A DNA stretch of 64,000 nucleotides from assembly GCF_023055435.1 (NCBI RefSeq), contig NW_025963779.1, positions 86,242,001-86,306,000 on the forward strand, given 5' to 3'. Made by a program: the position numbers and the translations under genes. The notes beneath the pieces were generated by a model, which was given only the letters and a program-made list of their open reading frames with translations, made no database searches and was not told the origin of the DNA. Of the stretch, positions 8,651 to 57,173 are shown piece after piece (the first letter of the stretch is position 1; every line of letters starts with the position of its first letter). The DNA comes from Haliotis rufescens. Its lineage: Eukaryota.

Positions 8651-8904
8651 TCCCCGTGAAGATCCAGGGTAAAATAGGTCTTTAGTAGCCCATGCTTGCC
8701 GTAAAAGGTGAATATGCTTGTTGTAAGAGGTGACTAACGGGATCGGGTGGTCAGGCCCACTGACTTGGTTGATGCATGTCATCGTGTCCCAATTGCGTGG
8801 ATCGATGCTCATGATGTCAATCACTGACTCGATTATTTACAGACGCCGTCATATAGCTGGAATATTGCTGAGTGCAGCATTAAACAACAAATAAATAAAC
8901 AAAA
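8651..8904 (+). mobile_element. SINE family A (non-tRNA structured head), full length
   Basis: cccgtgaagatcc...taacgggatcgggtggtcagg...gctggaatattgctgagtg...ttaaacaacaa. Confidence 0.9.
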
Positions 8905-8921
8905 GCTACAAGGCCATAAAA

Positions 8922-8995
8922 ACTCACTCACTCACTCACTCACTCACTCACTCACTCACTCACTCACTCACTCACTCACTCACTCACTCACTCAC
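8922..8995. repeat. (ACTC)n microsatellite
   Basis: About 18 perfect units. Confidence 0.98.
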
Positions 8996-10124: not shown

Positions 10125-10400
10125 CGTCTTCCCGAGGCACGGGAAGTTAACTGATTGTAAAAGTCCACCCTTGCCGAAGACTGAAATTTCTGGGCTCGAT
10201 CGAGGCACCGTCAGTGGCTATTATGTCCCTGCTATGTTCCTCCTACTGACCAATCAGATTCTGTCTCTCATATGACTTGCACTGGCTTCAAACAAACTGG
10301 CAGTGCCCAGTCAAGACCATATGATTGATAATCAGAATCTTTATTGTGGTGAAATGGGTCTTACTTTGCGAAGTGCATCCAATCATGTGAGCACCTGTTA
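10125..10400 (-). mobile_element. MITE family E, partial
   Basis: Reverse-complement match to the right half of 352-893. Confidence 0.75.
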
Positions 10401-11788: not shown

Positions 11789-12038
11789 TGTGAGTGAGTG
11801 AGTTGCTTTTAACAGTATTCCAGTCATATGTGGGAGGAAAGCCCAAAGTGATGCAGGTCTCAGACGTTTACCACTTCGATGAACCCCACATGCACGGGTA
11901 TGGTGCTGACAAACCTAGAAACATAATCAGGGCGATCGGGATTCAAACCCACAATCATAGGTTTCTGGCGTGCCTTAGTGATGCAACTCTGCACAGCCAA
12001 TTGCGTTGCCTCGGACGACTGGGCCACCCGTGTCCCCT
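11789..12038 (-). mobile_element. tRNA-headed SINE family C
   Basis: Homologous to 21350-21629; 14-bp TSD aagtgagtttaatg. Confidence 0.9.
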
Positions 12039-12943: not shown

Positions 12944-13615
12944 CGGGGGCTGGTCAAAAAGTTCTAAGCCTAACAAACAAAACCAACAATTGTGAAAGTG
13001 TTTTTAATTTTATTTTTCCACATAATCTTCCTACTTTTCAATACACTTCTCATATCGATAGTGAAGTTTTTCAATTGCAGTCAGGAAGAAGTTTTCTGAA
13101 GCTGCCCTGAAAAACATGGCAGCTTGTGACATGCAGTCATGAATTTCTTGGGGAGTACTTTTCTCTAAAGGCAAAAAAGTACCTGTGAAGATCCGGGGTA
13201 GAATAGGTCTTCAGCAACCCATGCTTGCTGTAAGAGGAGACCAACGAGATTGGGTTGTCAGGCTCGCTGACTTGGTTGATGTCATTGATCCCAATTGTGT
13301 GGATCGATGCTCATGATGTCAATCACTGGATTGTCTGGTACAGACTCGATCATATAGCTGGAATATTGCTGAGTGCGGCGCTAAAAAACAAACAAACAAA
13401 GAAAACTAAAGGCAAAAGATTAATGACTGCAGGGTACTCATTCTTTTCTATTTCTGTGTCCATTTGGACCCCTATCACATTCAACTGACTGTCACTGATA
13501 CACAAACGGCCTCAACAGACCAAATACACTTGCAATGTACTACATTGACAAGTTCACTTTGTTATGGCCCATAGTTGAAAGTTAGTTAGGCTTAGAACTT
13601 TTTGATCAGCCCTGG
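12944..13615. mobile_element. Mariner-like MITE containing a nested SINE
   Basis: TA|cgggggctggtcaaaaagttctaagcctaac ... gttaggcttagaactttttgatcagccctgg|TA. Confidence 0.85.
13181..13405 (+). mobile_element. SINE family A
   Basis: Full head; TSD ctaaaggcaaaa; nested in the mariner-like MITE. Confidence 0.9.
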
Positions 13616-14054: not shown

Positions 14055-14156
14055 GGGTGTGGGTGGGTGGGTGAGGGTGTGGGTGAGGGTGTGGGTGGGT
14101 GAGGGTGTGGGTGGGTGAGGCTGTGGATGGGTGAGGCTGTGGGTGGGTATGGGTGC
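14055..14156 (+). repeat. G-rich (GGGT/GAGGGTGT) simple repeat
   Basis: Many GGG tracts with short loops. Confidence 0.9.
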
Positions 14157-14899: not shown

Positions 14900-15380
14900 T
14901 GATGCTGATGCTGGTGGTGGGACAGTCCCCCCTGATGCAGGTGGTGGGACAGTCCCCCCTGATGCTGGTGGTGGGACAGTCCCCCCTGATGCTGGTGGTG
15001 GGACAGTCCCCCCTGATGCAGGTGGTGGGACAGTCCCCCCTGATGCTGGTGGTGGGACAGTCCCCCCTGATGCTGGTGGTGGGACAGTCCCCCCTGATGC
15101 TGGTGGTGGTGGTGGGACAGTCCCCCCTGATGCTGGTGGTGGGACAGTCCCCCCCGATGCAGGTGGTGGGACAGTCCCCCCTGATGCTGGTGGTGGGACA
15201 GTCCCCCCTGATGCAGGTGGTGGGACAGTCCCCCCTGATGCTGGTGGTGGGACAGTCCCCCCTGATGCTAGTGGTGGGACAGTCCCCCCTGATGCTGGTG
15301 GTGGGACAGTCCCCCCTGATGCTGGTGGTGGGACAGTCCCCCCTGATGCTGGTGGTGGGACAGTCCCCGCTGATGCTGGG
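14900..15380. repeat. 27-bp minisatellite, about 17 copies
   Basis: Unit ctgatgctggtggtgggacagtccccc. Confidence 0.97.
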
Positions 15381-16663
15381 GAATACTTAACGTTGCAGCT
15401 GCTAACGTTGTGGTGACAATTAGGCAGACAAGCTGAAATATTTTGAAGTTTAGGTTTCTTGTGGCTTTGAGTTTGTTTATCAAGGATAGACAGTTACAAA
15501 GTAAAGGGATGATGGGCGCCTTGTAGACTTGCACAAGTCTCTAAACCAATACTTATTAGTTTAAATCATTATTTCTATATTATGTAAATAATAACAAGTT
15601 GTCCCTTTAAGAGACTGGAGTCCTTAGTACTGTCTACAAATCTAGACTTGCCTATTAGGAGGATAGAATTACTACACATCAATGGACGTTTCTTTCAGTA
15701 CAGCCTTGGAGCAAGGCTAGGGTCCTTGCGGTTTGCTGCTGGAGTACTTTATTCTTAATCTGGTGGTCAGACTCTGTGACTAGGTTGATTCTATGTTAAT
15801 GTATTCTGATGGGGTTTATTGTGCTCATTATATCAATCGCTGGATTGTCTGATCTGGATTATTTACAGACCGCCATAATATAGCAGGAACATTCCTGAGT
15901 GAGGTGTCAAACGTCAAGCTAACAAATAAATTATTTATTTACAATTATTATCAAGACTGAAAAGTATATTTGGATTAACACATCCATTTTTCTCAAGAGT
16001 ATATTTTGATGTGCTATTTTTACCCGTCAGTCATATTAGAATTTCCTTTTGTTGATGTCCTCTCATGTCGAACACAACAGGCTGTGTCTGAGAGTTGACG
16101 TTTCCTCTTTCCTCGGAAGGAAAGACTGTTCAAGTTTCCTTCGTGAGCAGCTCTGTCATGTACACACATTAAGACTACTGTCAGCTACCTCGGAACCAAG
16201 TGTACATGCATGGTTATTTTGAACTGCAGTGAATATTTGTGTGAAACATTACCAAGTCGATAGATGATACCATTGTGGTATTCTCCTTGAAGGTCACATC
16301 AAGGTCACATCTCCACTAGTATGTCATGTAATGTTTAAGTCTTGTGATGTTGGGGTATAATACTATGTTATAAATGTTTAGAACTTGGATTTCTGACTTT
16401 ATTTTTTGTATCTGTTTACTCTGTCCAACAAAGAAAGTTGTCTGGAATGGAAGTTATTATGTTTTTCACAAATCTGAAAAAAAGGTAATAATAAAAGTAG
16501 TAGTTTGCAAGGAAAGACTATACTACTTGAACTTCTGTTGCCCTGAACTAGCAGACTGCTGTTAATTTCACCCTGCTGTGATATTGCTGGAATATTGCTA
16601 AAAACTGAGTGAAACCATAGTCACTCGCTCACTCTGTTAATTTTATGTTGTGGTTGTATTGAT

Positions 16664-16906
16664 TTGTTTGGTTGTTGTTTATCGCAGTACTCTGCAATAT
16701 TTCAGCTATATGACGGTGGTCTGTAATTAATTGAGTCTGGACCAGACAATCCAGTGATTGACATCATGAGCACTGATCCACAAAATTGTGATACGATGAC
16801 ATGCATTAACCAAGTCAGCGAGCCTGACCACCCCATCCCGTTAGTCACCTCTTATGACTAGCATGTGTTGCTGGAGGCCTATTCTCTACTCGGATCTTCA
16901 CGGGTC
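16664..16906 (-). mobile_element. SINE family A
   Basis: Full length; TSD tggttgtattgat / tggttgtatcgat. Confidence 0.9.
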
Positions 16907-16914
16907 TGGTTGTA

Positions 16915-18367: not shown

Positions 18368-18524
18368 ATGGATCCAGGCCTGTATCAATGAAGACCTGCC
18401 ACCAACCATAGAGCTGGAGGAGGGGCTCCGGAATGGCGTCATTCTGGCCAAGCTGGGACGCTTCTTCTCACCACAAGTTGTCTCCCTTAAGAGAATATAT
18501 GACAGAGAACAGACGCGCTACAAG
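18368..18524 (+). CDS. IQGAP1: IQGAP exon (CH domain), 157 nt
   Basis: ttgcag|A TGG ATC...TAC AAG|gtacaa; WIQACINEDLPPTIELEEGLRNGVILAKLGRFFSPQVVSLKRIYDREQTRYK. Confidence 0.95.
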
Positions 18525-21500
18525 GTACAAATAGGGTTTTTATTCATATTTTCATGTTGATATAAAGGGTCTCAACTCTGAGGAGACCCGTGAAGATTCC
18601 GGGGTAAAATAGGTCTTCAGCAACCCATGCTTGCCATAAAAGGCGACTATGCTTGTCGTAAGAGGTGACTAACGGGATTGGGTGGTCAGGCTCGCTGACT
18701 TGGTTAATGCATGTCATCGATCCCAATTGTGTGGATTGATGCTCATGATGTGAATCACTGGATTGTCTGGTCCAGACTCTGAGGAAAAATAGAGAAAGAT
18801 TTGCTACAACAGACTGCCACTTAAACCACTGGTAAATTTCTTTCGGTCAAGTAAACTCGGACAATAATAAACCATATATTAACATGAACAACTGCTGAAA
18901 ATGAGGCTGAAAGATGGTTCATGCTCTTGGAGTCAAAAGACTGATGTAAAATAGAAACAACTTCAAAGTATTCTTATTTCAGTTTAACTTCAAAACTGTT
19001 CAACTAATTTGATCAAGCCATGGGGATGGCTGACAAGTAGGTGATAAGTTATTTGAAATGCCTACGACGATGAAACAACAGCAGAATATATCAACACCAT
19101 TTTGTTATTGACACTTGTTGTTGGCCAGTGGACAGGGAATTGTCAACATGATAGAGAGGCTTGTAGGAGTACATGACAGTCTGGACTGCCAGCCTAAGGG
19201 ACTCCTGTAGTCACAGGATCCTCAGTGCATACGGGATTTATCATACAATGGACAGTATTATTGATGCATCAAACCAATCCGATAAACTTGGAACTGATAA
19301 ATATGTAAATGAGGTCACCTCGTAGGAAGTACTTTTTATCTCTACACCAGTGTCCGAAATAACTGCCTGTAACTTTCAATTTGGCTGCCTGAAATTTTCC
19401 TCCACCTGCCCGACTGTCTAGCAGATAATTTGAAGACTACTTACGTATTCAGTTTTATTATAACTCCTTGTAGATTCTCAATTAATTGTTTGCATTATTT
19501 CAACTGAATCAAGACACGATTTGTCTCTTATTTTTCGTGACTTTCAATATCTATAACGTCTAATAATGCAGGCAGGTAACTTTGAAGATGGGCAGGCAAC
19601 ATTTATTGGTCATCAGCCTAACTGTCCAGTTGGGTTTTAAGTTATTTCAAACACTGCCTTATACATGGATGCATGTCTGCTTGCTCAATTAAAGCAATGT
19701 TCCCAATATGGCAGATAGGGGTTTACGGGGGTGTATGTGATTATGTAGACAAACACACCAGCAAATCATTTGATACAGTTTGATAAAGGGGCTGTTCCCT
19801 CCAACACTGTTTTCATATACAGTGTCTAAAGTTACTTCAATGGAGAAATTATTGACTAAAGCATTGATTATTGCAAGAATGACAAATGATAAAGAGATTA
19901 TTCGCCGGGCGTGTTCCTGTATCATAAATATCACATATTAGAATAATAAAGTACATGTATTATGCTTGCCAAAGACTTGTATAATACAAGTTTTCATTCC
20001 TAATATATGATATAATATGATATGGGAAAACACTCAGCGAATAATTCTTATACCTTCACAATAACTATACCTTCCCACATGCACATTAAGTACATGTCCA
20101 ATGGCATGAACAAAAAGTGAGCAGTGGTTTATTTGTAAGATGTGTAGGACTTAAGAGACTAGAAAAAAAAATAGTCTAAGACAAAACCCAGCTACCCACG
20201 TTTCTTGTCTGTGGGTGTTCCAGTTCAGTAGAGATTCCCTGCATCCTATTCTCAATTTCCCTGTGGGAGCTCTTGTTTTGATGTAATCCCCAAGCATGTT
20301 CATCAATGTTCATCAATGTTCATCATGTTCAGTATGTTCCGTATGTTCAGCTTGTCTTACCCAGGGGACCTCAGGCTGGTTTAGACAGCAGACTGTAGAT
20401 GTATACATGTGACAGTTTCGGCACTAGATTCCTGACTTGTCTTACGTTTGCAGGCGAAGGGTCTCCACTTCCGACACACAGACAACATCAACCATTGGTT
20501 TGCTGCCATGACCGAGATCGGACTACCACAGGTAAATACAACAACCCTGTGGAAATGTCACTTTTCCAACTATCCTGCCAGGCAGAACAAAGATAATTAC
20601 CCATTGTTGGTTTTAAGACGTTACACTTTGGGAATTGAAAGATGAGGTGAAAAGTGGATGGTATATTTAGTGATTCTATTCTGTTAGTGCAGATGGTGTG
20701 TAAAACCCATTTCACTCACTCACTCACTCACTCACTCACTCACTCACTCACTCACTCACTCAGTGTACAGCTCTAATGCTGATAGCATTCAGAAAGTGCA
20801 ATATTTCTTAAATAAAGGCTTAAATAAACTTTACCTTATTGAAACTATTCCATTTGGTTATCTGCATTTGTTAGGGTTTTTAAAAACGTGGATTTAAGAT
20901 TTTATATTGTGAGTGATGCCTGATACCTGATGATAACAATACTGTATTTCATGTATGTTTGTTGCCCATGCCACCATGTAAATGTGATCCCACACAGTGT
21001 TGATCACGATGGATCAGTCATAACACAATCATTGATTTTTGCAGATATTTTATCCAGAAACAACAGATATTTATGACAGAAAAAACATGCCACGAGCTGT
21101 CTACTGTATACATGCACTGAGGTGAGTTGGTCATAGCCATGCCAAGCAGCACAGAGTCTCTCAGTTGCTAGTTGAAGTAGGCTTCTCATGTCATACTATC
21201 TTTGTTAAATCTTGAAGGAACTTATTTGTTTGTACTTGTATTATTATACAGTTTTTTTTCTGGCATTGACTTTTTATGTATATTTGATAAGCACTTAGTT
21301 GGTGGATCATAGGGACACATGCTATTTGTGTGTCAACTTCTGTATACTTTAGGGGGCACGGTGGCCCAGTCGTCTGAGGCGCCGTGATTCGCTGTGCAGA
21401 GTTGCATCCCTTGGGCATGCAAGAAACCTATGATTGTGGATTCGAATCCCAGTTCGCCCCATTTATGTTTCTAGGTTTGTCAGCACCATACCCGTGCTCA

Positions 21501-24500
21501 TAGGTTTCACCGAAGTAGTAAAAGTCTAAGACCTGCGTCACTTCGGGCTTTCCTCCCACATTAAGCTGACACACCGTGATATAACTGGAATAATGTTAAA
21601 AGGGGCGTTAAACCCAACTCACTCACTCACTGTATACTTCATACACACCATTTGAGGTTTCTTGCTGACTTGGAAGTTGCACATAAATAGAATGGAAGTT
21701 GAATCCAATATCTTGACTCTACACTAAGGCATGGCAAAGGTGCTGGCATTCATAGCATTGTACAGGGTTCAATTTAACTGCTGACCTGTTGGCCCGGGGC
21801 TAGTTAAAATTACGAAAGGCTTGCTGAAACCTAAAGTAGATGACCCATCTGGCTTGTCAAAATTTCACCCCTTTTCTGTGTATGTTTAATGTTTTTAATT
21901 GGACACTGCCCGTGAATCATGTTATTTTGATGAGATAAAGTTTAAGGGGGATCAGGTCGTGTGAATGGTTAATTGAAAAATCATCTCCATAGTATGACAC
22001 AATCAGCAGCCATTTTGTAATGTTCTGTACAACATCATCTTTACTTGCTCATGAAATCGCCACAAAATGAGGCAAATGGAAGCCAAGATATATTCTCAGT
22101 GCAGGAAATGTTATTTAGGGGTGAGGAGTTCTAAAATATTTGGAGCCACTGGGTACCTTAGTCTTGGGACAGTTAGTTTGGAGAAGGACCAGTAACGTTT
22201 GAAAGGAGCAAGCCCTGCTGGCTACAAACAAATTTGTTGTTAAATCTACCCCTGTTGTATCAGTGGTGAGGGAGTTAATATTTAAAGTCACATCGGCAGT
22301 ATTTTAGCCACATTGTATCAGTGGCCAAGGTGGCCCTGTAGTGAAGGTCCCAGCCGTAGGCTGTGCAGAATTAGCCGGGTCGAATCTGTTGGTTGTCTTA
22401 GCTTCCCGTCTCTGAGCTAAGTCCCTTTGCCATTCTTCCCACATGAAGCCACACAAGATGATATCCCTGAAATACTGTTCCTCGTGACTGTAAAGCCAAC
22501 TCACTCACTCACTGATTGTTTACTGTGACTAAGCTGCAGCTTCTAGAGGCCAATCAAAAACTATAAGTGGGCTGTGTTGTCATAGATACAGGGGAGATAA
22601 TCCTGTGGGAAAACTCATTCCTCATTTCCCCCTTTTGTCAATCAATTTCGAAGGGAAACGTGAATTGTGGATGAATTTTTGTGAACATAATATTACAAAT
22701 ATTTAAAAAGCGTATTGCAGTATATCGGTATACTGTGAAGTATTAATACCTGTTAAGATCTGGGGTAGAATAGGCCTTCAGTAGCTTGCTGTAAACGGCA
22801 ACTATGCTTGCCGTAATAGGCAACTAAGGGGACTGGGTGGTCAGGCTCGCTGACTTGATTGATGCATGTCATCGTATCCCAAGTGTGTGGATCGATTCTC
22901 ATGATGTCAATCACTGGATTGTCTGGTCCAGACTTGATTATTTACAGACTGCCGTCATATAGCTGGAATATTGCTGAGTGAGGCATTAACAACAAACAAA
23001 CAAATTAATTATAATTGTCAGACGACCACAAGATAATGGTGTGTGCTGACTTCATGTGTAACCCTTGTCTGGCTTCTGTTTCAGTTTATACCTATTCAAG
23101 CTTGGGCTGGCCCCACAGATACAAGATCTCTACGGAAAAATAAACTTCACAGGTGTGTACAAATAAGCATTAAAATATATTTGTTGCAGGTTAAGCTATA
23201 AGTTAACTCTTTCAACACCGCAGGCCGGTACACCAACCAAGGCATGACTCCCTAGACACTGCAGGGCGGTAGACCGGCCAAGCTGTAGCCACAGCAAAAT
23301 AGTATTTAAATTTTTTTAACCTGTCTATGATTCATTTATGACATTTCACAATATCTGAAATTTATCATATTTTATCAAAAGATGAAAAATTTGTTCACTA
23401 TTTCCTGGAAAGGTATTAAAAAAATACTTTTCACACACACACTTCAACAGCGGGTCAATATCAAACATGTCAAAGAGCAAATTTAAGACATTTAAGCAAA
23501 TCTTTAAATAAATTATATAAAGTAATAAATAAAATTAATAAAAATATCTTCAATTTGTCAAACTTACTTCAAGTTATTATTTCCATCTTTTTTTTTGTGA
23601 ATGTGTAATGCAAGTCAAATGACATCCTGGCTCTCACCGCCTCGATTTCTTGGCTCAGACACGTTTAATACCAAAATATATGCATGAGAAATCTCTGCCA
23701 CAGCTCATAACCTGGCACGATACATCTACAAAGTTCCAGTTTTCAATATAGGTCACAGGATTATAGGAATAACATGATTTGACCAAAACCTTTTGCCTAA
23801 ATCTGTAAATTTTCATACTCAAGGACAGTAACCATTGCTGTAATTCTTCCTGTCCTATAAATGAATGCATAAGCTTCCTAATGATGCCAAACATCAAGCA
23901 ACTCGAGATGACTCGTTATTCATTTAAAGCCTTGAAAGACGGAGGTATTCCTCTGTATTTTCTCCTTTTACTGAGCGGAAAGCCACTGTTATCGGGTAAT
24001 GGGTGATGACAGATAATATTTACAATTCAATAATAAAAAAGAAGAAGAAATAGGTAGATGGATATTATGATATCTTATATTTGCCGAAAATCGTCAAAGT
24101 TTCACTTCCTTGGAGCTTAATCTGGACATTATGAATGTGTTAGCTTACATTTTATATTCATGAACAAACTTAATTGAGTTGTAAATGCTTTAATTAAATA
24201 ATGTGACAAACATAACTTTCATTTATAAACAATAGGATTAGACCTTTTAAATGGTGTCTAACATGTAGTAGCAAAGATGTTTTACAAGCAGATATTTTCC
24301 TTTATTAATGTGGGCTTCATCTGTCACACAAGTGTCAGGGAACTCGGTGTCACAGAAGTAAATGCTTCTGGTTGCCTGGTGTTGAATGAGTTAATGTACA
24401 CAGATGCCTTTTATAAAATGATTAATCAATTCTTTTGGATGAAAATCTAATAATTCATTTATTGTGGCCTCAGAAAACTGACCTGAATAAACAATTGCAA

Positions 24501-27500: not shown

Positions 27501-30500
27501 GTCAAGTAAACATCGCTGCAAAGTTGTTTGGACAGACACAACATAAAGTACATTGGTAAAGCACACTCCACAAGTAACTATGATGACAACTTGTCGATCA
27601 TTTCATGATTTTTAGAACTTCAAGTTATTTGCAAAACGTAAACAAACCATTTAAGGTTCACAGGAATTTTGAAGATGTTCAAAGAAAACCCATTGATGCC
27701 TACATCGTAATAAATACCTCAGATCTAATAAGCAATAAGCGCACCATATTTGATTTTCGTATATGTCTGCAAGCATTACGACACAGGATTTGTACTTTTG
27801 TATGGCGAAAATATTCAACCAAAACACCTGAAATTAGGATTGGTGAATATTTAAAACTTGTTTGTTATATCCAGAAAGTTTTATGACATGATACGTTAGG
27901 TTAACCCTTATATACTCATTTCTGCAACTGACATCATGACCTCGAAAATTAACATTTGCATAAAAAATGTAATGAAATGTTCATAATTTACCGTTCCGTT
28001 GTTGTTTGCTGATAAATTAAATGTGAATCTATGCCCAGTTAAAACTACCATTTCAGAGGTATGATTATTGAAATTAATTTGCACAAATTTAACGATTGAA
28101 CAGGTTCCTAATATGAAACGCATCACACATTCAATCACGTAATTCAGGTAAGTTCAAGAAAATTTACAAAGTTTTATGTTCGCTTTCGTCTTAACCTCTG
28201 TATGTTTGAAAATGTCAGGATATTTTTATATGAAAATGTGAATTTTTCTATCAGGCAGAGGTAAGAAGCGTTAAAACAATTCAACAGGCTAAAGGTTAAT
28301 GTGCTTTTTCACAGTGGATGAATTTCATTAAGTGGCAGCCTTGACAGTTTTGTTTTGTTTAGCTGCCAAGCCTGTGCCATGCATTGAGGTGCAGGGTGTC
28401 CTTAGATCCCATGAGGTGCAGGGTGTCCTTAGATCCAGTGAAGTGTCTTTAGATCCTTTGAGATGCAGGGTGTCCTTAGATCCAGTAAAGTGTCCTTAGA
28501 TCCTTTGAGATGCAGGGTGTTCTTAGATCCAGTAAAGCGTCCTTAGATCCTTTGAGATGCAGGGTGTTCTTAGATCCAGTTACATGTCCTTAGATCCAAT
28601 TTGTTGCATGGTGTCCTTATATCCAGTGAAGTGTCCTTAGATCCAATGAGATGCAGGGTGTCCTTAGATCCAGTGAAGTGTCTTTAGATCCAATGAGATC
28701 CAGGGTGTCCTTAGATCCAGTGAAGTGTCCTTAAATCCATTTAGATGCAGGGTGTCCTTAGATCCAGTGAAGTGTCTTTAGATCTATTTAGATGCAGGGT
28801 GTCCTTATATCCAGTGAAGTGTCCTTAGATCCAATGAGATGCAAGGTGTCCCTAGATCCAGTGAAGTGTCCTTAGATTGTTTGAGATGCAGGGTGTCCTT
28901 GGATCCAGTGAAGTGTCCTTAGATCCAATTAGATGCATGGTGTCCTTTGATCCAGTGAAGTGTCCTTAGATCCAATTAGATGCAGGGTGTCCTTAGATCC
29001 AGTAAAGTGTCTTTAGATCCAATGAGATGCAGGGTGTCCTTAGATCCAGTGAAGTGTCCTTAGATCCATTCAGATGCAGGTTGTCTTTCGATCCAGTGAA
29101 GTGTCCTTAGATCCAATTAGATGCATGCTGTCATCAGATCCAGTGAAGTGTCCTTAGATCATTGAGATGCAGGTTGTCCTCAGATCCAGTGAAGTGTCCC
29201 CAGATCCAGTGAAGTGTCTTAAGATTGTTTGAGATGCAGGGTATCCTTGGATCCAGTGAAGTGTCCTTAGATCCAATTAGATGCATGGTGTCCTTTGATC
29301 CAGTGAAGTGTCCTTAGATCCAATTAGATGCAGGGTGTCCTTAGATCCAGAGAGGTGCAGGGTGTCTTTAGATCTTCAGGAGCCCTCGTCCTTACCACCT
29401 ACAATTAATTAAAACGAGCAATGTGTTTTCCATGACCTGCTCTGGAGACACATGTGGCTGAAATGTAGGCGTGATTTACTCGTTTCTTGAACCTGTTTAC
29501 TTGGCAGTAAATGAACAAGATATCCCAAGAGATTGACAGGCTGTAGGCGTTATTGATGGCCTGTCTGCCTCGTCTGTCACGCTGACCTGACAGACATCGA
29601 CGACAGGTTCCTCGTTTCAAGTGCAGAGGCTGTGTACCATAAATGTCAGGCATGTTTATTATAAATCCACTTCCATACTCACGTGGTGACATTGATCTCT
29701 ATACAGACTTTTTGATGAATCAAGGAGAAAATTACATTTGCTGTAATCATGAAATTTTCTGCTTACAACACTGTAATCTGTTTGTAGGAAATGGCACTGA
29801 GTGCAGCTGTGTGATGGATAGCAAATGGATTTCATTTCAAATAAAGCGTGTTTAAAAATGCAGTGTTCATAAACGGTGACAATCAAGGAGTCCTTATCAT
29901 TATTCTTAAGAAGGAAGGATTTAAAGAGGCCCTTGATTAAATTGCTAAAGCAAAAGCCCTCAAGGGCTCTCCTGTCTTTCTGCCTCTGAAGAAAGTAAAT
30001 CTCATCAGGATACTAAACCATACCATCAGATGCCTTGCTTGCCTAAAAAGGCGACTATGCTTGTCGTAAGATGCGACTTATGGGTGGTCAGGCTCACTGA
30101 CTTGGTTTATCCATGTCATGTCACAATTGTGTAGATCGATGTTCATGATGTTAATCACAGGATTGTCTGGTCCAGACTTGATTGTTTACAGACCGCTGTC
30201 ATGTAGCTGGAATATTGGAGAACAATAGGTACATGCCTCTATAATAAGTGATGAGGATGCTGAGGTACTCCATTTACTATATTATCCCTTTCTCCATGTA
30301 TTTTGATTAACAGGGATATCCAGATCATGCTTTGCGTTGTGGAGTACAGTGACATGGCACAAGTAGTGGGTTCTTTGAGCAATTCAAATCTTTGTGCAAT
30401 TTAGATAAGACTTTTCAGTCGTTTAAACATACCAGGATTCAAAGAAGACACTCAATTATGATTTTTATCATTTACAGTGTATTGCAAATATTGTTTTAGG

Positions 30501-33500
30501 TATTGATTTACACTGCAGGGGGTGTGTACTCTTGACTGGCAATCACTAGGATTGACTGACACATCGTCGTCACATTTCCGATTTCATTGCTAAACCTGTT
30601 CAAATGTATTGATTTGGTTCCCCATGAGATGGGTTTAGTGGCAAGAGCAGGATTTTAGAGGAGCATTTTTATTCTTTACAAACATGGATAAACTATCGTG
30701 TTATAAAATTGACAGCTAGGGTGACTGTCCTTTATGAATATATTTACTGTGTAATGGCTTTAGTGCTTAAACGGTTTTCTTATGTGGGGACTTTTGGATT
30801 GAATTGGTCGTCTGTAGTCTTTTCTTGTCACTGATTTAGGGGACACTCGGTTGATTGTGGGGCATCCTCTTGCCCGTATTGGTTGTTGGTCATGCTGTCA
30901 ATCACTGGTTTGTCCGACCCAGACAGGATCATGTACAGGTCGTCGTGATATATCTGGTATTGTTGACGGGTGGTGATCAATATTCATGCACGACTTATAG
31001 TCTTCCCAGTCTAGTGTGTCCAGTTTTGAAGCCTGTAAACATGTAGATGTACAAAAATCATGAGGTGTTTTATAAAAATAACAAGACTTCCAGATTCCAA
31101 ATACACATGGTTTTACCAACTACTTGTGTTACAGTATTTGCCATAATAATAATAAGTTATCTGGGCGCTTATTATAACCATTCACAAGTTAACTTTGTCA
31201 GACATCATGAATTAGTGGAGAAACTCAGTTCAAACATGGGGCGGTCGGGTAGCCTAGTGGTTAAAGCGTTAGCTTGTCATGCCGAAGACCCGGGTTTGAT
31301 TCCCGACATGGGTACAATGTGTGAAGCCCATTTCTGGTGTCCCCCGCCGTGATATTGCTGGAATATTGCTAAAAGCGGCATAAAACCATACTCACTCACT
31401 CAGTTCAAACATCAATGAAACTAATGTTTTCAGTAATAGTTACCAGGCAGTTTTATTCCCCTTCTACGCTGCTGTTTTCTGTTAATATCTGCGATATACA
31501 CAAGAAAATATTAATTGTCATGTAAATGTTCAGTCTCATTTGGGGGCGCTTGATGAAAATAGAAATTACAGACTGGTCAAGAAGTTGGTCAAAGACGTTT
31601 TTGTTAGTGTAGCACGCTTAGTATGGTGAATATATAATAATATCTTGCATGTTGGTTGTCAGGGGCAACACTTTTCCAAAATGGTATATCCTATTTTTTG
31701 TATCTGTTCCCTATCTGTGTTGACTTTTCTCTCGGTTCCATACCAGTATATGTATATATCCCGATAAGACATTTTACCCTGTCTGTATCAATGCACAAAT
31801 AAGTCAATACCTACCAGGAACCCCACGCTGATGCTGTGAACATATTCTTGTTGAAAGCACCCTATTCATTTGATTGATGTTCACTGGTTTGTGTGATGGG
31901 GTGTGATGGTAATGGGTTGTATATAGCAGTTGCTTGATGGAGAATTATGACAAAAGATGGTGGTAATCACAGAGCGGGAACAGTTCCACAGACCCTGACT
32001 GTATGAGCAATCAATGTCCATTAGTATCTCAGTCAAGGCAGTCTGCAGGAAATTAGTATCAGGTCTGAAGACGGGAATCAAGGCACAACTTGAGACACAA
32101 TCACAAAATCAATGTTTGGTAGTTACATGATCAGAAGTTTGTGATAAGTAATGACTTAATGGTAGCCCTTCCAAAAGAAATGTAACATTGGCTGACTTTG
32201 TGAAATGGATGTTGAAATCACTGATGTGTTTATTGTAGCAGAAGTATGTCTTTCATAAGAACATTTCATCTACATACCGAACAATTCGACAAATTGTAAG
32301 AATTCTTGATTTTGATGGTTTTTTGTCAGTTTGTTCCCATCCAGAAAAGTTAATTGTGATTGTAATTTTGGCTTATGAAACTATGTTCTGTAAATCATGA
32401 AATTGCTGTCTTGTCAAATTAATGAAAGTACTGATTCCTTGTTTCAAATGCATCATGAATTATTGCAAGTAGCCCTACCTTCAAAATCGAACGCTATCCC
32501 CTAATCACTTAACACCAAGAATGTTGACCACCACAATATGTTATAAACAACTACTATACGTCAAATAACAGTGTTTTCCTTTCTCCGAAACTTCTCCCGC
32601 TTGACATGCGATCCAGATTTCATGAAATGAGTGTCAGGAAATGCCAAATAAAGCATCATCACGTGAGCGAGGTCAGATAAGCCAACGGAGACTGCAAATG
32701 TTCCAAGTGTTTTCGAACGAGTTTGAGATATCTGTTGAGAATAATATGCAAGTGATGTATTCATCAAGCATCACCAACTCAGCTGTAACTGTATCGGACA
32801 TCTTCACTGTGTCCATGAGCAGTGTTTGTCATGATTGAAGTCTTTGATAGGCATTTGGAAGTTGGGAGAACATGAATACATGACACTTTTTTATGGATAG
32901 CAACTTCTTTTATTCTTTTTACAATGTTTACAAGCTGCTTGTTGTTCCTTCATCAATAAGAGAAGTTGCTATCCATAAAAAAAAGTAACATGTATTTTGT
33001 GATGATTGCCAAGAACAAAGGCAGCCAGCATTTTACTGCCATACCTGTTTGGTTCACTGTAACCCTGGCGCAGCTTGTGATGGTCCCCAGTGAGAAACAC
33101 TTAGTCAAGCGCTAAATTACATTGTTTGTTGAATGTTTTGTGAATGAAACAGGACAGTCATTGTTTCCAGTATGTGCAGCGAACCTAATTAACGACCAGA
33201 CAGTATGCCAAGATAAGAATGTGTCACTTTACGCTGGTCAAGGTCACTCTCTTGTTTCTCGTTAGTTTCATGCTTTGATTAATTTAATGATTTTCCGTAT
33301 TTCTCCTTGAGACTTGCACACCACTATTGGAGTTCTTACATCTTTTGCTCATTGATCATAACACCAACACCGACACAGCTTTTTACAGAGTAAACCTCTG
33401 ACAGTATCGGTATCAGGATACAATGTATGCTTGACGTAAGAGGTGACTAACGGGATCGGGTGGTCAGGCTCGCTGACTTGGTTGATGCATGTCATCGAAC

Positions 33501-36500
33501 CCAATTGCGTTGATCGATGCTCATGATGTCAATCACTGGATTGTCTGGTCCAGACTTGATTATTTAAAGTTTGCCGTCATATAGCTGAAATATTGCTGAG
33601 TGTGGTGTTAAACAACAACAGAAAAAAAAACACCAAATATTGATACATGGAAGTTACATCATTGGCAATTGTTGAGCTGTATTACAGCGGTACGGATTTC
33701 AGTGAAAAAGCAAAGAAAGTAACAGATTATCTGAAACCTGAAGAATAGGCATTTTGATGGGATAGTGCATATGATGTTTATCATCCAAGTGATGAAATGA
33801 TTGTAAAATACTTGTCATTGTGGGGGCGGTGCTGTTGCTATGCAGCTGGGTGGGGCCCAATGGTGGTTGTTATTGTTTTACATGCTCACAGGAGTGCAAT
33901 ACACTCAGCAGATATAATGTATATAGACAGAGTACACAAGAGATATTGAATATGGTTCCTCTTGTCTTGGGAATATTGATGTTTCAAATGTACTTTAATG
34001 ATACTAACTGAGTCACTTATTTTGATAGATTCCGATGAAAAATCTTTTATTGACATGTCTTAAATTAATAAGAAGAATATGATAGTTTGGTTATGTGTTG
34101 CCAGTTTATATGCACATGGCTATTTCTGGATACAGAATCCTGCATCCTAGCTCAACAAGAACCCAAATTACATGTTCAGAGTATTGCTGGGTGGACATTG
34201 TAGGACAACTGATACTCGAAGTGGATCCAGGAGACAAAGGATGCATTGTTACTATATTGGGAGTATTGTTTGAGAGGCATTTGTTGGAAGTTGATGGATA
34301 ACTAAGAAGATAAATGTTTATAGACAAACTTCATCGTACAAAGTAGACACTATCTATGGATAACAACTTCTCTATTATACTGTAATAGCGATGTTTTGGT
34401 ATAGATCCTGATACTGTTGTCAAGCAAGACTATGTTGGTAGTAGTATACCGTATTCGACGTAATAAGCGCCCCGCTCTAATAAGCGCCTATGGCAATATG
34501 TGCTAATATATTGGCTCGTGAACAATCCCAATTAGCACCCCTTCCGATTGATCAATGTACACAAGACTCATTTATTCGCTTATAATGCGCACTCGTGTGT
34601 TAATTATGTGCCCTTAATTATGGGCAATTAAATTCTGGATAAATATATCTGTCGTACATAAACATTTCAGGCTGTCAGCATAAACCACGGAAACGCTAAT
34701 ATTCTAAGAGCCCCCTATTTCTAATTTTGAGAGCGCCCTGGGCGCTTATTACCCCAATACGGTAGTTTTTTTTACATACAGGAGGACGATGGCACATAAT
34801 AACATTGAATTATATTTTCATATATAAATACTTTTGCCAGTACAGATATTGTGTGAAGATTGCAGCTCAGTACATTAATGCAGAGTTGGGTTTTCATGCC
34901 ATTTGTGTTTCAAGTATTCACTTCTTAGACACCTGTGAAGATCTGGGGTAGAATAGGTCTTCAGCAACCCATGCTGTCGTAGGACTATGCTTGTCGTAAG
35001 AGGTGACTAACGGGATCAGGTGGTCAGGCTCGCAGACTTCCTTGATGCATTTCATCGTATCCCAGTTGCGTAGATCGATGCTCATATCAATCATTGGATT
35101 GTCTGGTCCAGACACGATTATTACAGACTGACGTCATATTATTTTAAAAATCAGTGCCTTCAATGAAGTACTTAATTGATATTCTTTTTCGTCTTTTTAT
35201 TTATGTCATTCTATAACAAACCTCAGGAAGAAGTACTGGATATATTCATAGGCTCTGTTGGTCCCGTTTGGCTTTTAGAAGGCCTGTTTTTGCAACACTA
35301 GTTTGCTGACTATTAGATTCTGTATGTAGTAGTATGTGACTTTAGTCATGTTTAAAACAGCTCGGCTTCCTTCAGACACAGCTACACTAAACAGAGGAGG
35401 AAAGACAGCTGTGTGGGGGGCATTCTGAGGTTTGATTATAGGACTGAATGAAGTCAACAGAGAAATATACACCTGTAAACACTGTGTTTATTTAAGAAAA
35501 GAAATGACAAGCGAGAGTTGTTTATCGTATGATAAAACACTGCTTGGAGAATAAAGCTTGAGAGGTGCAGCCCCATAGTGTTTCTCCCTGCACTGTTTTG
35601 TTGTACGATAAACAACGACCACGAGTTGTTTATTTCTTATATGCGATATCAACAGTTTGTACTGCATCTTTAAGGATGTTAGTAAAATGTACAAACTTTT
35701 AGAATGATTACCCGTATTTTAATAATGACGACTCCCTGAATACAATCCGACCTAGGAAATGTCGGTCAACTCCATTTTATGAACATGGGGGTTAAGTTGG
35801 GTATTTCCTGCATATTCTCAAAATCCTCACGTCGGTTATCTGAACCTTTTCTCCCAACACCGATGGTCATATCTCCTACTTTTGGATGCGATTGTTCGGC
35901 CACTGCGTTTATCTGCGTTTCTCAGCTTCTTCAGCTACAATTCATAAGACACTTCCCTCTCAAAAATCATGTCGTCCAGTATACTACGTCATGAAGTTCG
36001 AAGGGCTTGTTCAAATCTCCAGAAATGACGTCATGACAGAACAATGTTTTATCATCAGATAAACCACACTTTGTACTTCATTGGTTTTTTTTATTTATGG
36101 CGTAGCCATCTTATATCATAAGTACTGTTTGATGGGCATTTAATAATGATCCATACTTAGCATGCCAGCGCATGGAGCCATCGGTTCGGAGAAAGCAATG
36201 TTATGTTTCACTCTTAAAGTTTGGACCAAGGATTTGTTGCAAGCAGTGGTAGAATTGCTGCTGCAGGTTTAAGCACTATTCACCAGTCCCTCACGTGGAA
36301 GAGGGAAGCACTTATCTCCCAGCTAAGTAACAGGACAATTTCACTTGGAAAAAATACAAACTTGTCTATGACAATCCTGGCAATGCCAGTTGAATCACAC
36401 GAGGCGCCTGGGAATGAGGAATCAATACATGCACTTGAAGATGTGGGTTCTGATGGAAGTGACAGCCCTGCCGGGGAGCACACTGGCGGGTCCACCGAGG

Positions 36501-51500: not shown

Positions 51501-54500
51501 TCAAATCTTGCTTGTAGCACATGTCATCCTAATTTCAGTCCTGGTTCCGCGGAGGCAAACAAAGGCGCCAGTTCAAGGGTCGATTGGACTATCTCAACAG
51601 CAACGAAGATGCTGCCATCAAAGTAGGTGCTTGTTTCAATAAGCATGTAAGGCCCTCTTACTAAATTTCATTGCATTCAGGAATAGCAGTGGTATGTGAG
51701 TGTAGACTTACTCCTGTTCTCTTGCTGAGATTATAACTGTAGTACATGAGTGTAGACTTAGTCCTGTTCTCTTGCTGAGATTATAACTGTAGTACATGAG
51801 TGTAGACTTACTCCTGTTCTCTTGCTGAGATTTTAACTGTAGTACATGAGTGTAGACTTGCTGCTGTTCTCTTGCTGCGATTATAACTGTAGTACATGAG
51901 TGTAGAGTTACTGCTGTTCTCTTGCTGCGATTATAACTGTAGTACATGAGTGTAGACTTACTCCTGTTCTCTTGCTGAGATTTTAACTGTAGTACATGAG
52001 TGTAGACTTACTCCTGTTCTCTTGCTGCGATTATAACTGTAGTACATGAGTGTAGAGTTACTGCTGTTCTCTTGCTGCGATTATAACTGTAGTACATGAG
52101 TGTAGACTTACTCCTGTTCTCTTGCTGTGATTATAACTGTAGTACACGAGTGTAGACTTACTCCTGTTCTCTTGCTGCGATTATAACTGTAGTACATGAG
52201 TGTAGACTTACTCCTGTTCTCTTGCTGCGATTATAACTGTAGTACATGAGTGTAGACTTACTCCTGTTCTCTTGTAGCTTCAGTCGTACGTACGGATGTG
52301 GCGGGAGAGGAAGAAGTACCGGGACAGACTCAACTTCTTTAAATCAAATGTGAGTAGGCAGGATTTACAATTCACGTAAATAATAATCAACATTAAACTT
52401 TTAAGAATTGTGCTAGTTGTACATCATACTGTATTGTTTTGTTTTGACAACCTATAGATATTCAGTAGCAGGACCATGCTAAGTATGGATCCTCCTACTA
52501 CAGTAGTCGTGTAGCTTCCGTGGCTCTGCCTGGGCTGATGGTGAGTGCCAAGACAATTGTTGTGTGAGCCGATGGCGTCATGACTGTCGTCGTGTGAGCC
52601 GATGGTGTCATGACTGTCGCCGTGTGAGCCGATGGTGAGTGTCATGACTATTGTTGTGTTGCAGGAGGATAAGATCATCAGGATCCAGGCGTTCTTCCGG
52701 TCCAACCTGGCTCGCCAGGACTACAAGGCCCTGAGTAAGTGTGGCTCGATAGGTCACCGATCAGGAACTGATAACTGCTCATATATCTTGTTCACCATAT
52801 TTTGTATAATAAATCTATATGATGTAAGAATGTATGTAATGAATATCAACACTGCAGAGACATTATCTATATTTGAAAGGTGAAACAAATATATATCTGG
52901 CAGTGTATTGCAGCATGACTCCTTTGTTCACTGCCTCCCATCCCCATGTGACTCCTGACTGACTGTTGCACATCCTCGCCTTGTGTTGCCGTGACCTGTG
53001 TAGATCCGGGGTAGAATAGGTCTTCATCGACCCATGCTTGCCATAACAGGCAACTATACTTGTTACAAGAGGGGACTAGCGGGATCGGGTGGTCAGGATC
53101 GCTGACTTGGTTGATGCATGTCATCGAATCCCAAATTGTGTTGATTGATGTTCATGAAGTCACCGGATTGTCTTGTCCACACTCGATTATTTACAGACCG
53201 CTGTCATATAGCTGGAATTATGAAATTCTCTTAGTAGGCAAAAACTGTGTTTTATGTATTTTTTTATGAACATGGATTCTGTTATATTATGAAACATGAT
53301 CTATGTGGACTTAGCAACTGTGAACGTGTACTAAACTTGAGTTGTCACTGGACTGTCTGGTACAGATTCAATTATTTGCTATAATATAGCTGGAATAGTG
53401 CGGTGTTAAACAAACATTGTGTTTTACAGTGCAAGACAGCAGCCCATCCTTGTCTGTTGTGAGGAAGTTTGTCCACCTCCTTGATGCCAGTGATAATGAT
53501 TATGCTGAAGAACTGGGTAGGTCTTAATGCATTCATGGTTTACATTCCTCATATAATGTATGAGTGATGGAAGATAACTGATACTTGTAGTCCCTGTACT
53601 TGTATCAATGTATCCACTCCTTCAGTCCATGCATGGAATATGCAGAACTCATCAACTGTTCCCATTATAGAAGTGGAGGTGAGGTACAAAGCGTGATGAA
53701 TGCAACATTTCATCACAAATTCTCTTGCGATTTGCTTGACCCAAGACTGTCAGAATAGTAGATACCTGGGCCAAGTCTGTCGGAATAGTTGATACAAGGG
53801 GCCAAGGTTTGGCGTAATAGCAGATACATATTGTTTCTAATGAAACTAATAAACGTGTGTTTCGCATACCATGTGTAGTAAAGCTGGTAACATAGTATCT
53901 GCAAATATCTGCAAAATGCCAAACTTACCAGTATGCAGGTGTTATTCCAGTTTCTGTTATGAAACCACCTTCACAAGAAGCAATATGTTCTGGATGCCTA
54001 TTAAACCACCTTCACAAGAAGCGATACGTTCTGGATGCCTATTCTGAGTTGGCATGTCGCTGCCTTCTGTTCCTTTCGCTCATGCCAATAGGTTCTGGTA
54101 TCGTGGTTCTTGTTTGTGTCAGCCTCGTTTTGCATGAAGAGACTTTAAGCTGTGTGAGAACTGAGGCCCTGGGGCACTGCTCCAAGCAAGTCAAGTTAAT
54201 GGTCTATCTTGTTTAATGTGCGGCTTTGGACAGAAGGTGAAGGTCAGTAGTAGCAGCCCAAGGTTGTCAAGTATCTTTGTTTTATTTTTTATTTTTTTAA
54301 TTTTTTTGGTCTACTCATTTGTAATGTACATACAGTTGCAATGGTTTTTTTGTCATACATTGCTGGTGTGTGTTTTAAATATTTTAATATTTATATATTT
54401 TTTTTTTTTTAAAAGGATAGACTATTAATAGTTGAAACATTTTTCTTTTTCATCTCCAAAATTTGGAATATTGGTTGTTTCATTATCATTATAGCTATTT

Positions 54501-57173
54501 ATTCAAGACTTAATTTTCTAACATTTACCAATAATGCTCTTCTAGGCTTTAAGCCTAAGTGAGCTGGTGTCAGGGGAGGTTTGTCCTTCATTCATAGTCT
54601 ACAAACATCTCTTCTAAAATCACTGTGGGGAAACTTGGCCTGCAATCTCCCGCCACTCACGGTCTTCAATGATCTGGATCCATTCATGTAGGAGTTATTT
54701 TCTTCATTTAAAAAAACACCAAAACACTGTTTCTGAAGACGAAATCCATAAAGCTTAGAAAACATAAGCTTAATATGATTACTAAGAATATTGAAGGCAT
54801 CATTATTATCATTTAACTAATAACATTGGCCATCTTGTAAACATCTCCCGTTTATTCAATTTTTTTTCTCTAAATGATTGTTCATGGACTTGTGGTGTTA
54901 CTTTACCCGGCTATCTCTGTATGGAAATACAACACATGATGTAAGCTATTGTACATTTTCATCCCATCTGTCCTTTTGTAAGAAGATAACAATCATGATG
55001 GCAGAATATTAACTTTGACAGAATATTTTCGTATGTGGTTCCTTCTGTTATTTTGAATATGGAACCATGTAAGCTACAGCGCCATGGTGCTACTTTTGGT
55101 TATAATTCTGTTGTCGATGTTTCAAGTTTAACTTCCTGGTTTCATGTACTTTGTGTTCAATCTTTGTTTTCACGTTTACATCATTTGTTATGGAGATCAA
55201 TGGCAACCTGTAGTATCGTCTGTGTGAAACTTATAGATAGATCCACGCTGTCATCACACTGCATGGAACAACTTGTGTTCATGTCAAACTAACTAATGTT
55301 ACCTCCTTAGGGGCGACAGTGCATGGTTGAGTTCCAAACATTGTCAAGCATGCCTTTTTCTGAAACAACATCGTCAAGCATGCCTGTTTCTGAAAAAACA
55401 CAGGGGTTGATTTAACTGCTGGAACGTAAAGTAGATTGCCCGTCTGGCTAGTCAAATTTCACCCCTTCTCCATGTATGTTTAATTTTTTAATTGGACACT
55501 ACTTGTTAATCATATAATTTTGCTGAGAAAATATTTAGGGGTCATGAGGTCTTGTGAAATTAATGGTTAACTAAAAGAAAGATATATCTTGATCATCTTG
55601 GTACAATGACAACCAGACGCCATTTTGTAATGTTGTGTACAACAACATCTTTATTTGCTTGTAAATTACCATGAAATGAGGCAAATGGAAGCCAAGATTT
55701 AATCTCAGAGTGCAGGAAAAGGCAGATCAGGGGTGAGGAAAACTTTTTCAAGTCCCGCTCGCTGGCTACACGACCACAGGTTTCGGCCCCTTCGTGGCCT
55801 CCGACATTTAGTTGTAAGCCAGTTACTTTTAAAAGGAGCAAACCCTGAGGGCCACATACAAATTTGTTGTTAAATCTACCCCTGAAAACATTGTAAATAC
55901 TAGTTTGTATGCACTATGTTGCCCCATTACCCATGAATACATGTGGCCACTTTGTGGTGTTGTCACTATTTGCAACCAATATGAATCAAAGGCCTGGTTA
56001 CAGCGAGAGGGAAGCCAGCGACTGATCAGACCAATGAGCAATCAGATTACATAAAACGAACATTCATGTTTCTTCCTTGCAATATTGCGTTCATCTGCTC
56101 TACGAATGCCTCTGTGGCCATGTGGATAGAGCATCTGCTCGGAGAGTAAAGGGTCAGTGGTTCAATCCCCTGGCCGCCTCCGTGATGTTAAACCCCATTT
56201 CACCTCGCCCACCCACTCTACACACATGGCGCACCAATAGGGTTTGTACATAGCTGATGTGGCCCGTGAAGATCCGGGGTAGACTAGGTCTTCAGCAACC
56301 AATGCTTGCCGTAAAAGGCGACTATGCTTGTCGTAAAAGGTGACTAACAGGATCGGGTGGTCAGGCTGACCTGACTTGGTTGATGCATGTCATTGATCCC
56401 AATTGCGTGGATGGATGCTCATGATATTAATCATTGGATTGTCTGGTCCAGACTCTATTATTTACAGACCGCCATCATATAGCTGGAATATTGCTGAGTG
56501 CGGCGTAAAACAACAAACCAACCAACCAACATAGCTGATGTGCAGAGTAGGGCTCATTTGACAACAATGAATCTTAATCAGCCTCATTTCCTTAGCTTAC
56601 AAACACGTCTCGACTCCTTGTGGCTGCATGTATTCGCAGGTGATGTGGAATGTAGTGTACACGAGCCTGTGAAGTATTGACGTTGTCGGAAACAGAGCTG
56701 TAGTCTTTTGATGATGATCTCCTGAGTTATTTCCCTTTCACTACAGAGTTACAGAAGCTTCGTCAGCAAGTGGTGTCTGAGATCAGGTCCAACCAACAGC
56801 TGGAACATGACTTAGACCAGATGGACATCAAGATCGGTCTTCTCATCAAAAACAGGATTACACTGCAGGCAGGTCTTGTATCTGGTGTTGGGACCAGTTC
56901 AAAATTGAAACAGCGGTACCAAACCCCCTATCACCCCCTATCACCCCCTATCACCCAACCCTGCCTGGGTACCTGCTGTAGGTTTCAAGAGTTGGGAACA
57001 AAAGTCTGATTGGGAATTGTTTTGTCCTGGCAAAAGTATTCAGATGCGATCAGGTCATTCAACATTGAAGTTGACTGAAGCTTTCTCTGTATACAAACAT
57101 CTAAAGTCAGAAGGAATGCATGTATAGTCCGAAAGAAATGCAATCAATAGTGACTTGTGGTGTAACCTTGGAG

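Follow-up and report, generated by a model that had tools for sequence, protein, structure and literature searches.

How a short interspersed element (SINE) that begins with neither a transfer RNA (tRNA) head nor a known ribozyme obtains a precise 5' end is the question raised by a stretch of Haliotis rufescens DNA (contig NW_025963779.1 of assembly GCF_023055435.1, positions 86,242,001 to 86,306,000), here called the window, which is the whole 64,000 nucleotides (nt) analysed. The SINE in question starts with a 70-nt head module, and this head is predicted from sequence comparison to form two tandem RNA pseudoknots and a T-loop-like hairpin. It is probably an RNA fold for which no description was found, carried by a known kind of SINE and shared with viruses, while a ribozyme role is unlikely. 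The reading that we favour, with a probability of about 0.4, is that the module stalls 5'-to-3' exonucleases and so fixes the 5' end of the SINE, rather than cutting itself.

A first-pass annotation of the window had listed eight headed copies, and their strands and places were recovered with offsets of 0–2 nt. Four 5'-truncated copies and one fragment are also present. The copies are given below, with scores under a model built from aligned heads.

8651..8914, plus strand: SINE copy with full head and doubled 3' hairpin (head model 38.3 bits)
13180..13413, plus strand: SINE copy with full head and single hairpin (44.3 bits)
16655..16906, minus strand: SINE copy with full head, single hairpin and a 13-nt target-site duplication (52.7 bits)
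18585..18780, plus strand: SINE copy with full head, 3'-truncated, about 60 nt behind an IQGAP CH-domain exon (48.9 bits)
22747..23012, plus strand: SINE copy with decayed head (26.1 bits)
34930..35139, plus strand: SINE copy with full head, 3'-truncated (50.9 bits)
52993..53218, plus strand: SINE copy with full head (36.4 bits)
56261..56528, plus strand: full-length SINE copy with a 14-nt target-site duplication and a (CAAC)n tail
4744..4884, minus strand: 5'-truncated SINE copy
15758..15926, plus strand: 5'-truncated SINE copy
30036..30217, plus strand: 5'-truncated SINE copy
33426..33618, plus strand: 5'-truncated SINE copy

The precise start noticed in the window is borne out genome-wide. 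At least 14,409 exact 21-nt SINE heads were counted in the 1.33-Gb genome (G000), of which 9,762 start with GA, 2,495 with another base followed by A, and 2,152 lack the A. Target-site duplications of 8–15 nt flank 20 of 25 full-length copies (none in the other five) and adjoin position +1 in 13 of these 20; most of the remaining seven resemble a mutated duplication end. Four SINE families all begin exactly six bases before the one-base loop of the fold described below. Their first bases differ (G in 27 of 33 copies, A in 23 of 34, G in 18 of 21 and G in 6 of 11) but are mostly purines in every family, and the base just upstream of the start is random. G occupies +1 in about 80% of SINE heads, with too few copies resolved to separate a cap-derived from a templated G. 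An apparent excess of extra 5'-junction bases in the SINE over its partner long interspersed element (LINE) was discarded as a signal, being largely explained by mutated duplication ends.

The SINE is very likely the abalone LP-SINE (Hdi_LP, Hmi_LP) of Matetovici et al. 2016 (PMC4758252, available in part), so the kind of SINE and its head appear to be in print already, whereas the fold itself was not found described. We infer this identity with Hdi_LP, and an abalone-type host. In the available parts of that paper, 255-bp LP-SINEs are reported from Haliotis, their head is proposed as a promoter, and their first 70 bp are common to scallop, oyster and Littorina SINEs and to Nimb-17_LMi, I-3_DR and RTE-9_CPB; the promoter-plus-ribozyme of L1Tc is cited as an analogy only. 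Shared with the copies studied here are the missing tRNA head, the head of about 70 bp common to LINE 5' ends, the target-site duplications and the tandem-repeat tail. Scallop LP-SINE heads (Fig. S2 of PMC4758252) contain the 17-nt core unchanged and, judged by eye, build these stems from other letters. The difference lies in the promoter reading and in that no structure, viral copies or partner LINE are given in those parts. Our copies measure about 250 bp with a single hairpin and about 270 bp with a doubled one, against 255 bp in the Hdi_LP/Hmi_LP table (PMC4758252). They end in (CAAC/AAAC)n tails preceded by AATATT at about 20 nt; the LP-SINE hexamer AATATA or ACTAAA was not found before the tail repeats, which could be a species difference.

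Predicted fold of the SINE head

In the copy at 18585, the parts of the fold lie as follows, all on the plus strand.

18587..18618, plus strand: first pseudoknot
18587-18590 with 18600-18603, plus strand: stem S1
18591, plus strand: one-base loop, U
18592-18598 with 18612-18618, plus strand: stem S2
18606-18611, plus strand: A-rich loop
18619..18677, plus strand: second pseudoknot and hairpin
18619-18622 with 18628-18631, plus strand: stem S3
18674-18676, plus strand: GGG that pairs with the S3 loop (CCC)
18655-18669, plus strand: T-loop-like hairpin
18633-18647, plus strand: decayed duplicate hairpin

The first pseudoknot combines the one-base U loop with an A-rich loop ending in AGAAU, and the second holds a hairpin in its last loop. 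This hairpin resembles a T-loop: its 7-nt loop is closed by G-C, position 1 is U, position 4 a purine and position 5 A. A 22-nt internal duplication (18633-18669) gives most copies two T-loop-like hairpins, of which the first is usually decayed; the duplication was present in 20 of 30 copies examined.

The prediction derives from a sequence-only alignment of 22 heads (16 retroelement and six viral), and compensatory changes across 27 heads back it. The 7-bp stem S2 is paired in 88% of cells, with double changes at all seven pairs among the 22 heads, and its covariation score is 0.435 versus 0.142 in shuffles (0 of 500 reached it), a control that ignores relatedness. The 5' strand pairs with the four bases right behind the first S2 strand, not with the 3' end. 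This S1 pairing passed an own-versus-cross test with p=0.00005 over 22 heads and p=0.015 over the six viral heads. S3, of 4 bp and directly 3' of S2, gave p=0.00005 in 18 heads and p=0.0125 in the viruses. The pairing of the S3 loop with bases behind the last hairpin gave p=0.005 in 18 heads and was not significant in the viruses (p=0.41). S1, S2 and the second pseudoknot pairing were fixed before L225-L229 and the LINE heads were seen. In a nine-head test set made up of these and L065, which had been seen earlier, S2 reached p=0.001 and the second pairing p=0.009, with S1 compared by eye only. S3 came to notice once the test heads had been seen, leaving L401 as its sole fresh check, by eye. 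Single SINE copies fold no better than shuffles (z from -0.3 to -1.1), so the fold rests on comparison, not on energy.

The first-pass annotation had proposed four pairings and called for an alignment and covariation model of the heads; that check returned strong covariation for the conserved stems. All four pairings exist in the 18585 copy. The 7-bp stem and the small 3' hairpin stand, being conserved across families, but the closing stem (50% of cells paired) and the loop pseudoknot (65%) were drawn in the wrong register. The latter gave p=0.53 in the own-versus-cross test. The closing stem reached p=0.0004 over 22 heads, a signal absent from the six viral heads (p=0.57). A further candidate contact, of position 3 in the T-loop with the U in the A-rich loop, was rejected: among 70 heads, position 3 is U in 36, A in 33 and C in one, and the U is constant, its constancy being fixed by the search pattern.

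Searches for known RNA families used the gathering score in the window and E<=10 on six viral loci and one SINE locus. No Rfam family matched the head fold, and hammerhead, twister, twister-sister, pistol, hatchet and hairpin ribozymes were without a match, in agreement with the earlier remark that the head fits no ribozyme consensus. The absence of a tRNA head was likewise upheld: ARAGORN found no tRNA genes in the window, Rfam found none at the SINE head, and neither recovered there the A and B boxes of a tRNA-derived SINE. The SINE hairpin loop lacks the TC of a B box, and the sole Rfam match in the window is the tRNA-like head of another family, at 31243.

Several older relatives of the SINE in G000 (L185, L186, L177 and L195) have different letters in the 7-bp stem and keep its pairing; their second pseudoknot pairing is better than that of the SINE. 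Tandem arrays of only the first 48–52 nt or so of the SINE head, a unit comprising the first pseudoknot and part of the second, also occur (L340-L342, L368-L370, L374-L375, L326-L327 and G000:C1:86723070-86723351).

Spread of the fold among retroelements and viruses

The SINE shares its head with a LINE. Among 20 LINE loci chosen in G000 by the protein of open reading frame 1 (ORF1) alone, the head model places the fold in sense before ORF1 in 19, about 350–600 nt upstream of it, which fits the earlier suggestion of a structured RNA common to LINE 5' untranslated regions (UTRs). ORF2 of this LINE encodes endonuclease, reverse transcriptase and RNase H, and the 3' tail of the LINE can be aligned to that of the SINE, most closely in L260. 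From its layout, we take it to be of I/Nimb type.

The LINE does not begin at the fold. Directly upstream stands a 57-nt fold resembling the hepatitis delta virus (HDV) ribozyme, and the LINE begins at its G1. At L256:1406-1462 this segment matches RF02682 with 28.5 bits and E 0.0037, below the gathering score of 44, and the first 57 nt show the compact, canonical HDV layout of P1 from G1, P3/L3, P1.1, J4/2 with its C, and P2. Target-site duplications adjoin G1 in 13 of the 15 LINEs that have a duplication. All 33 LINE heads chosen by a 23-mer (L270-L306) retain the HDV-like ribozyme, three with point changes. Genome-wide, its last strand is exact in 846 of 877 LINE heads, and the T three bases upstream is missing in only four of the 877, all of them C-run expansions. 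Where SINEs have their first purine, the LINE has C. In 70 LINE heads the outer hairpin pair is G-U in 33, G-C in 32 and U-A in three, with variation mostly in loops; S1 and part of S2 were fixed in this set by the search pattern. An HDV-like ribozyme in this young, abundant LINE (at least 877 heads) would add I/Nimb to the six ribozyme-bearing LINE clades listed in PMC5786205 (2018), among which the available parts of that paper do not count it; the available parts of PMC11481361 do not mention a ribozyme.

MicroRNA sequencing placed 65 reads on a SINE copy, on both strands and with no pile at +1, and no sense reads on the LINE head, in runs too thin to serve as evidence. One of three runs (X21) contained a single antisense 31-nt small RNA at L255:1457-1487 with 104 reads, of a size like that of PIWI-interacting RNAs.

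Viral sequences carry the fold as well. The core pattern matched nine viral stretches, seven of which have the whole upstream fold with other stem letters; L035 and L039 have the core only, without the fold. Over all scans, seven distinct viral records with the fold were found.

L041 (found again as L051 in a second sample): viral contig with fold, peptidase-A21 capsid
L046: viral contig with fold, RdRP_4
L049: viral contig with fold, RdRP_3 and noda-type capsid
L053: viral contig with fold, RdRP_3
L401: viral contig with two tandem fold copies, RdRP_3 and S-domain coat
L040: 6.1-kb contig with two tandem fold copies, last open reading frame without Pfam match
L042: 212-kb DNA virus, fold between two genes

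All six small contigs have the fold in sense, about 5–125 nt behind the last stop codon and within about 170 nt of the contig end, and three viral hosts have the tombus-type RdRP_3. At the place equivalent to the SINE start, viral heads have no fixed base. A model built from the 16 retroelement heads alone scored the viral heads at 36–67 bits, with the core pre-fixed by the search patterns. Looser viral patterns returned mostly chance matches (8 of 15 without the fold in one set, 13 of 16 in a second, whose best score was 19.7 bits), and a further pattern over 66 stretches added one new virus to the known ones, with the rest at 23 bits or less. Relatives of two viral proteins added nothing: L206, without a model match, seems to stop short of the equivalent 3' UTR, and L207 breaks off within the open reading frame. 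In the DNA virus, an AT-rich inverted repeat behind the fold (L042, about 2980-3085) is perhaps a transcript end, which would place the fold in a 3' UTR there too.

A metagenome scan for the head, covering 122 loci of an estimated 7,000, met many repeat families, including the head before an I/Nimb-type ORF1 (L125). In four loci (L101, L108, L119 and L174) the fold head is fused directly before a tRNA-like head, and scallop lines in the PMC4758252 supplement, in its available part, likewise place the head upstream of a tRNA-type head. One element (L084) has two complete heads in tandem. SINE families in metagenome contigs (L062, L092, L132, L146, L095, L099 and L070) have 50–140 nt inserted in the first-pseudoknot loop and keep the 5' strands. 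Probable RTE-type UTRs with the fold were recognized by eye (L076, L170). Occurrence in prokaryotes was considered and set aside: the six matches of a GTDB scan (L224-L229) lie, judged by eye, in DNA that is repeat-like, microsatellite-tailed or at contig ends, and we take them for contamination, likely from host or soil animals.

The core 16-mer did not occur in the literature searched. The fold is not described in the available parts of the work on LP-SINEs, Nimb ribozymes and viral UTR structures, with subscription journals, Repbase/Dfam notes and bioRxiv supplements outside that scope.

What the fold may do

What the LP-SINE head does, and where it came from, has been asked since 2016. The fold is kept by LINEs, by non-coding SINEs, by the six small viral contigs (five of them with RNA-virus proteins) and by one DNA virus. 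A module shared this widely must exert its effect as RNA, probably through conserved machinery of the host. Any account has to cover the fixed SINE start, an RNA-level job, the viral 3' UTRs and retention behind a ribozyme.

Under the exonuclease reading, an intronic or read-through SINE copy would be trimmed by Xrn1 or Xrn2 up to the fold, leaving a stable unit-length SINE RNA without promoter or cap. An I/Nimb-type LINE protein would then recognize the common tail and insert a copy of this RNA in the genome. Known exonuclease-resistant RNAs (xrRNAs) give rise to a short 3' subgenomic RNA, and the fold would do likewise in viruses. That the module represents an undescribed xrRNA class, one that has moved among the LINEs and SINEs of animals, RNA viruses and a DNA virus and that serves a SINE without promoter or ribozyme, is a somewhat more tentative proposal. 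A constant start distance with differing first bases, and 5' strands kept despite inserts, are what an exonuclease block predicts. The fold upstream of tRNA-type heads supports it too, since RNA polymerase III would not include the fold. The sense placement in the 3' UTRs of the six small viral contigs speaks for it as well; tandem xrRNAs occur in flaviviruses, and the tandem fold in two of these contigs is counted as an xrRNA-like point. The tolerance of sense copies in the host gene (10 of 12 in the window) is also counted in favour.

This host gene was identified from two exons.

18368..18524, plus strand: host exon, IQGAP CH domain (E 5e-27 to IQGAP1 chains; ends approximate)
52665..52731, plus strand: host exon with IQ motif, probably of the same IQGAP gene (no PDB match; ends approximate)

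The window lies in this plus-strand IQGAP gene, with the SINE copies in or beside its introns. Seven of the eight headed copies, and the ten of 12 when truncated copies are included, are in sense to it, one of them 60 nt behind a splice donor. Such sense copies sit badly with efficient cleavage, in what is one gene with decayed copies. A tRNA-headed SINE with the same LINE-type tail is likewise mostly in sense (31241-31402, 39125-39272, 44248-44409, 60147-60302 and 26586-26663, plus strand; 17801-17936, minus strand). Its tail is common to another interspersed family at 21354-21630, 38200-38477 and 11828-12035. A further family occurs at 10127-10396, 606-892 and 62971-63211, and long self-similar blocks, probably minisatellite arrays, occupy 2402-3243, 14900-15379, 16912-17548, 28379-29375, 48677-49217 and 50856-52274.

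A number of observations count against an exonuclease block. The 5' end of the LINE is set by the HDV-like ribozyme, with about 0 of 877 copies starting at the fold, and its retention there with pair-preserving variation implies a task apart from 5'-end formation. The features that define the known xrRNA classes are all absent, no ring around the 5' end could be modelled from the fold, and plain frameshift pseudoknots do not resist Xrn1 (PMC10321173 and PMC10520033, both available in part). The purine-first start in four families fits polymerase initiation better than an exonuclease stop. The tRNA-headed SINE has the same sense bias, so this bias does not single out the present head.

The strongest competitor is a cap-independent translation element that would recruit a ribosome or initiation factor, used by the uncapped, ribozyme-cut LINE RNA and by uncapped viral RNAs; we regard it as possible, though doubtful. 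The SINE could then dock near the site of LINE protein synthesis, its 5' end being made otherwise, possibly by a promoter in the same DNA, and this part is held with the same reserve. Alu RNA docks in a comparable manner through SRP9/14. Such an element would explain the LINE and the three tombus-type viruses better, given that the fold is kept directly behind the HDV-like ribozyme and before ORF1 in nearly all LINE loci and that the 70 LINE heads vary mostly at unpaired or pair-preserving places. Ribozyme-linked cap-independent translation also has precedent (PMC13725137 and PMC6765202, in their available parts). By itself, however, it leaves the fixed SINE start and the heads fused before tRNA heads unexplained, and no Rfam enhancer or internal ribosome entry site family matched.

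It is unlikely that the fold is a binding site for the element's ORF1 or ORF2 protein, comparable to the R2 5' pseudoknot, or for a host RNA-stability protein. Its retention in both LINE and SINE would suit this role, and R2 protein does bind a pseudoknotted RNA (available part of PMC12222951). The same fold nevertheless stands before I/Nimb-type ORF1 (L125, L250-269), in probable RTE-type UTRs (L076 and L170, with RTE-9_CPB in the available part of PMC4758252) and in viruses without such proteins.

Less probable again is the 'LINE promoter' of Matetovici 2016, in which the head is an internal DNA promoter only and the fold incidental. The fixed purine start is independent of spacer length, the prevalent G at +1 could derive from a copied cap, and the T-loop-like hairpin fits five of the seven letters of the B-box consensus. 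Compensatory changes and presence in contigs encoding RNA-dependent RNA polymerase, on the other hand, need an RNA-level job, LINE copies do not begin at the motif, and one SINE family starts with A, not G. Both a promoter start and self-cutting at the fold would be expected to leave ribozyme-less LINE copies, and essentially none exist among 877.

Least credible is the self-cleaving ribozyme of a new class suggested by the first-pass annotation, which would cut at its 5' edge and release the SINE from host transcripts. In its favour stand the precise start with a purine in first place, a conserved single-stranded core with C-N-R-A after the hairpin that recalls HDV J4/2, and the C in the LINE, which might silence cutting there. 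Cleavage would, however, strip the HDV-like ribozyme that practically every LINE head retains. Viral 3' UTRs conserve the fold too, although cutting there would cost the virus its genome end, and they have no fixed base at the equivalent place. A two-head tandem element exists, and sense copies are common in the IQGAP gene.

If the preferred exonuclease block were true and Xrn1 is the enzyme stopped, the fold would offer a third way, beside promoters and ribozymes, to a precise retroposon 5' end, and a new xrRNA fold. If instead it recruits ribosomes, it would explain how ribozyme-cut LINE RNA is translated.

Comparison with known RNA systems

Viral xrRNAs resemble the SINE head in being compact pseudoknotted RNAs in viral 3' UTRs, sometimes doubled, and differ from it in helix order and sequence; the SINE head has no three-way junction and no Rfam match. 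The three-way junction with a double-pseudoknot ring that marks classes 1 and 2, those of flaviviruses, is absent from the covarying fold. In a class 3 xrRNA, the class of Tombusviridae/Solemoviridae, the Xrn1 stop falls precisely at the base of the first helix, and a T-loop is part of the structure (PMC12397905, available part), a likeness to the T-loop-like hairpin here. The class 3 layout of a P1/P2 stem-loop, apical T-loop and loop-to-3' pseudoknot was not found, and our hairpin, unlike that of class 3, is placed within the last loop of the second pseudoknot. For coremin xrRNA, the published model is an H-type pseudoknot whose loop has a single base and which depends on a second hairpin behind it (PMC10321173, available part), and in this modelled form it shares with the SINE head the one-base loop and the downstream hairpin. 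The short coremin hairpin with YGAD loop and conserved spacer was not seen by eye in 27 heads. No xrRNA is described from a retroposon in the available xrRNA literature, subscription journals again lying outside its scope.

Tombusvirids lack caps and have modular 3' cap-independent translation enhancers. The viral copies of our fold are likewise modular 3' UTR elements of about this size, accompanied in three of the viruses by a tombus-type polymerase. They differ in matching no Rfam family, and the fold also occurs in toti-like and tetra-like contigs, a DNA virus and retroposons.

With HDV-like ribozymes, the SINE head shares a purine-first 7-bp helix and a C-N-R-A after the hairpin. That helix, however, starts 7 nt inside the SINE (+8) and not at its first base, and the pseudoknots are tandem, not nested, without a P3/L3 active-site loop; covariation and Rfam alike recovered no nested P1-P2-P3/L3-P1.1-P4 double pseudoknot in the head. 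Permuted twister, pistol and HDV readings, made by eye against the consensus, were rejected, as they need pairings that failed. A further likeness is in the way the module travels: like the HDV-like ribozymes of R2, RTE and L1Tc/ingi (Pr77), it is a short module swapped between unrelated LINEs and kept by their non-autonomous derivatives.

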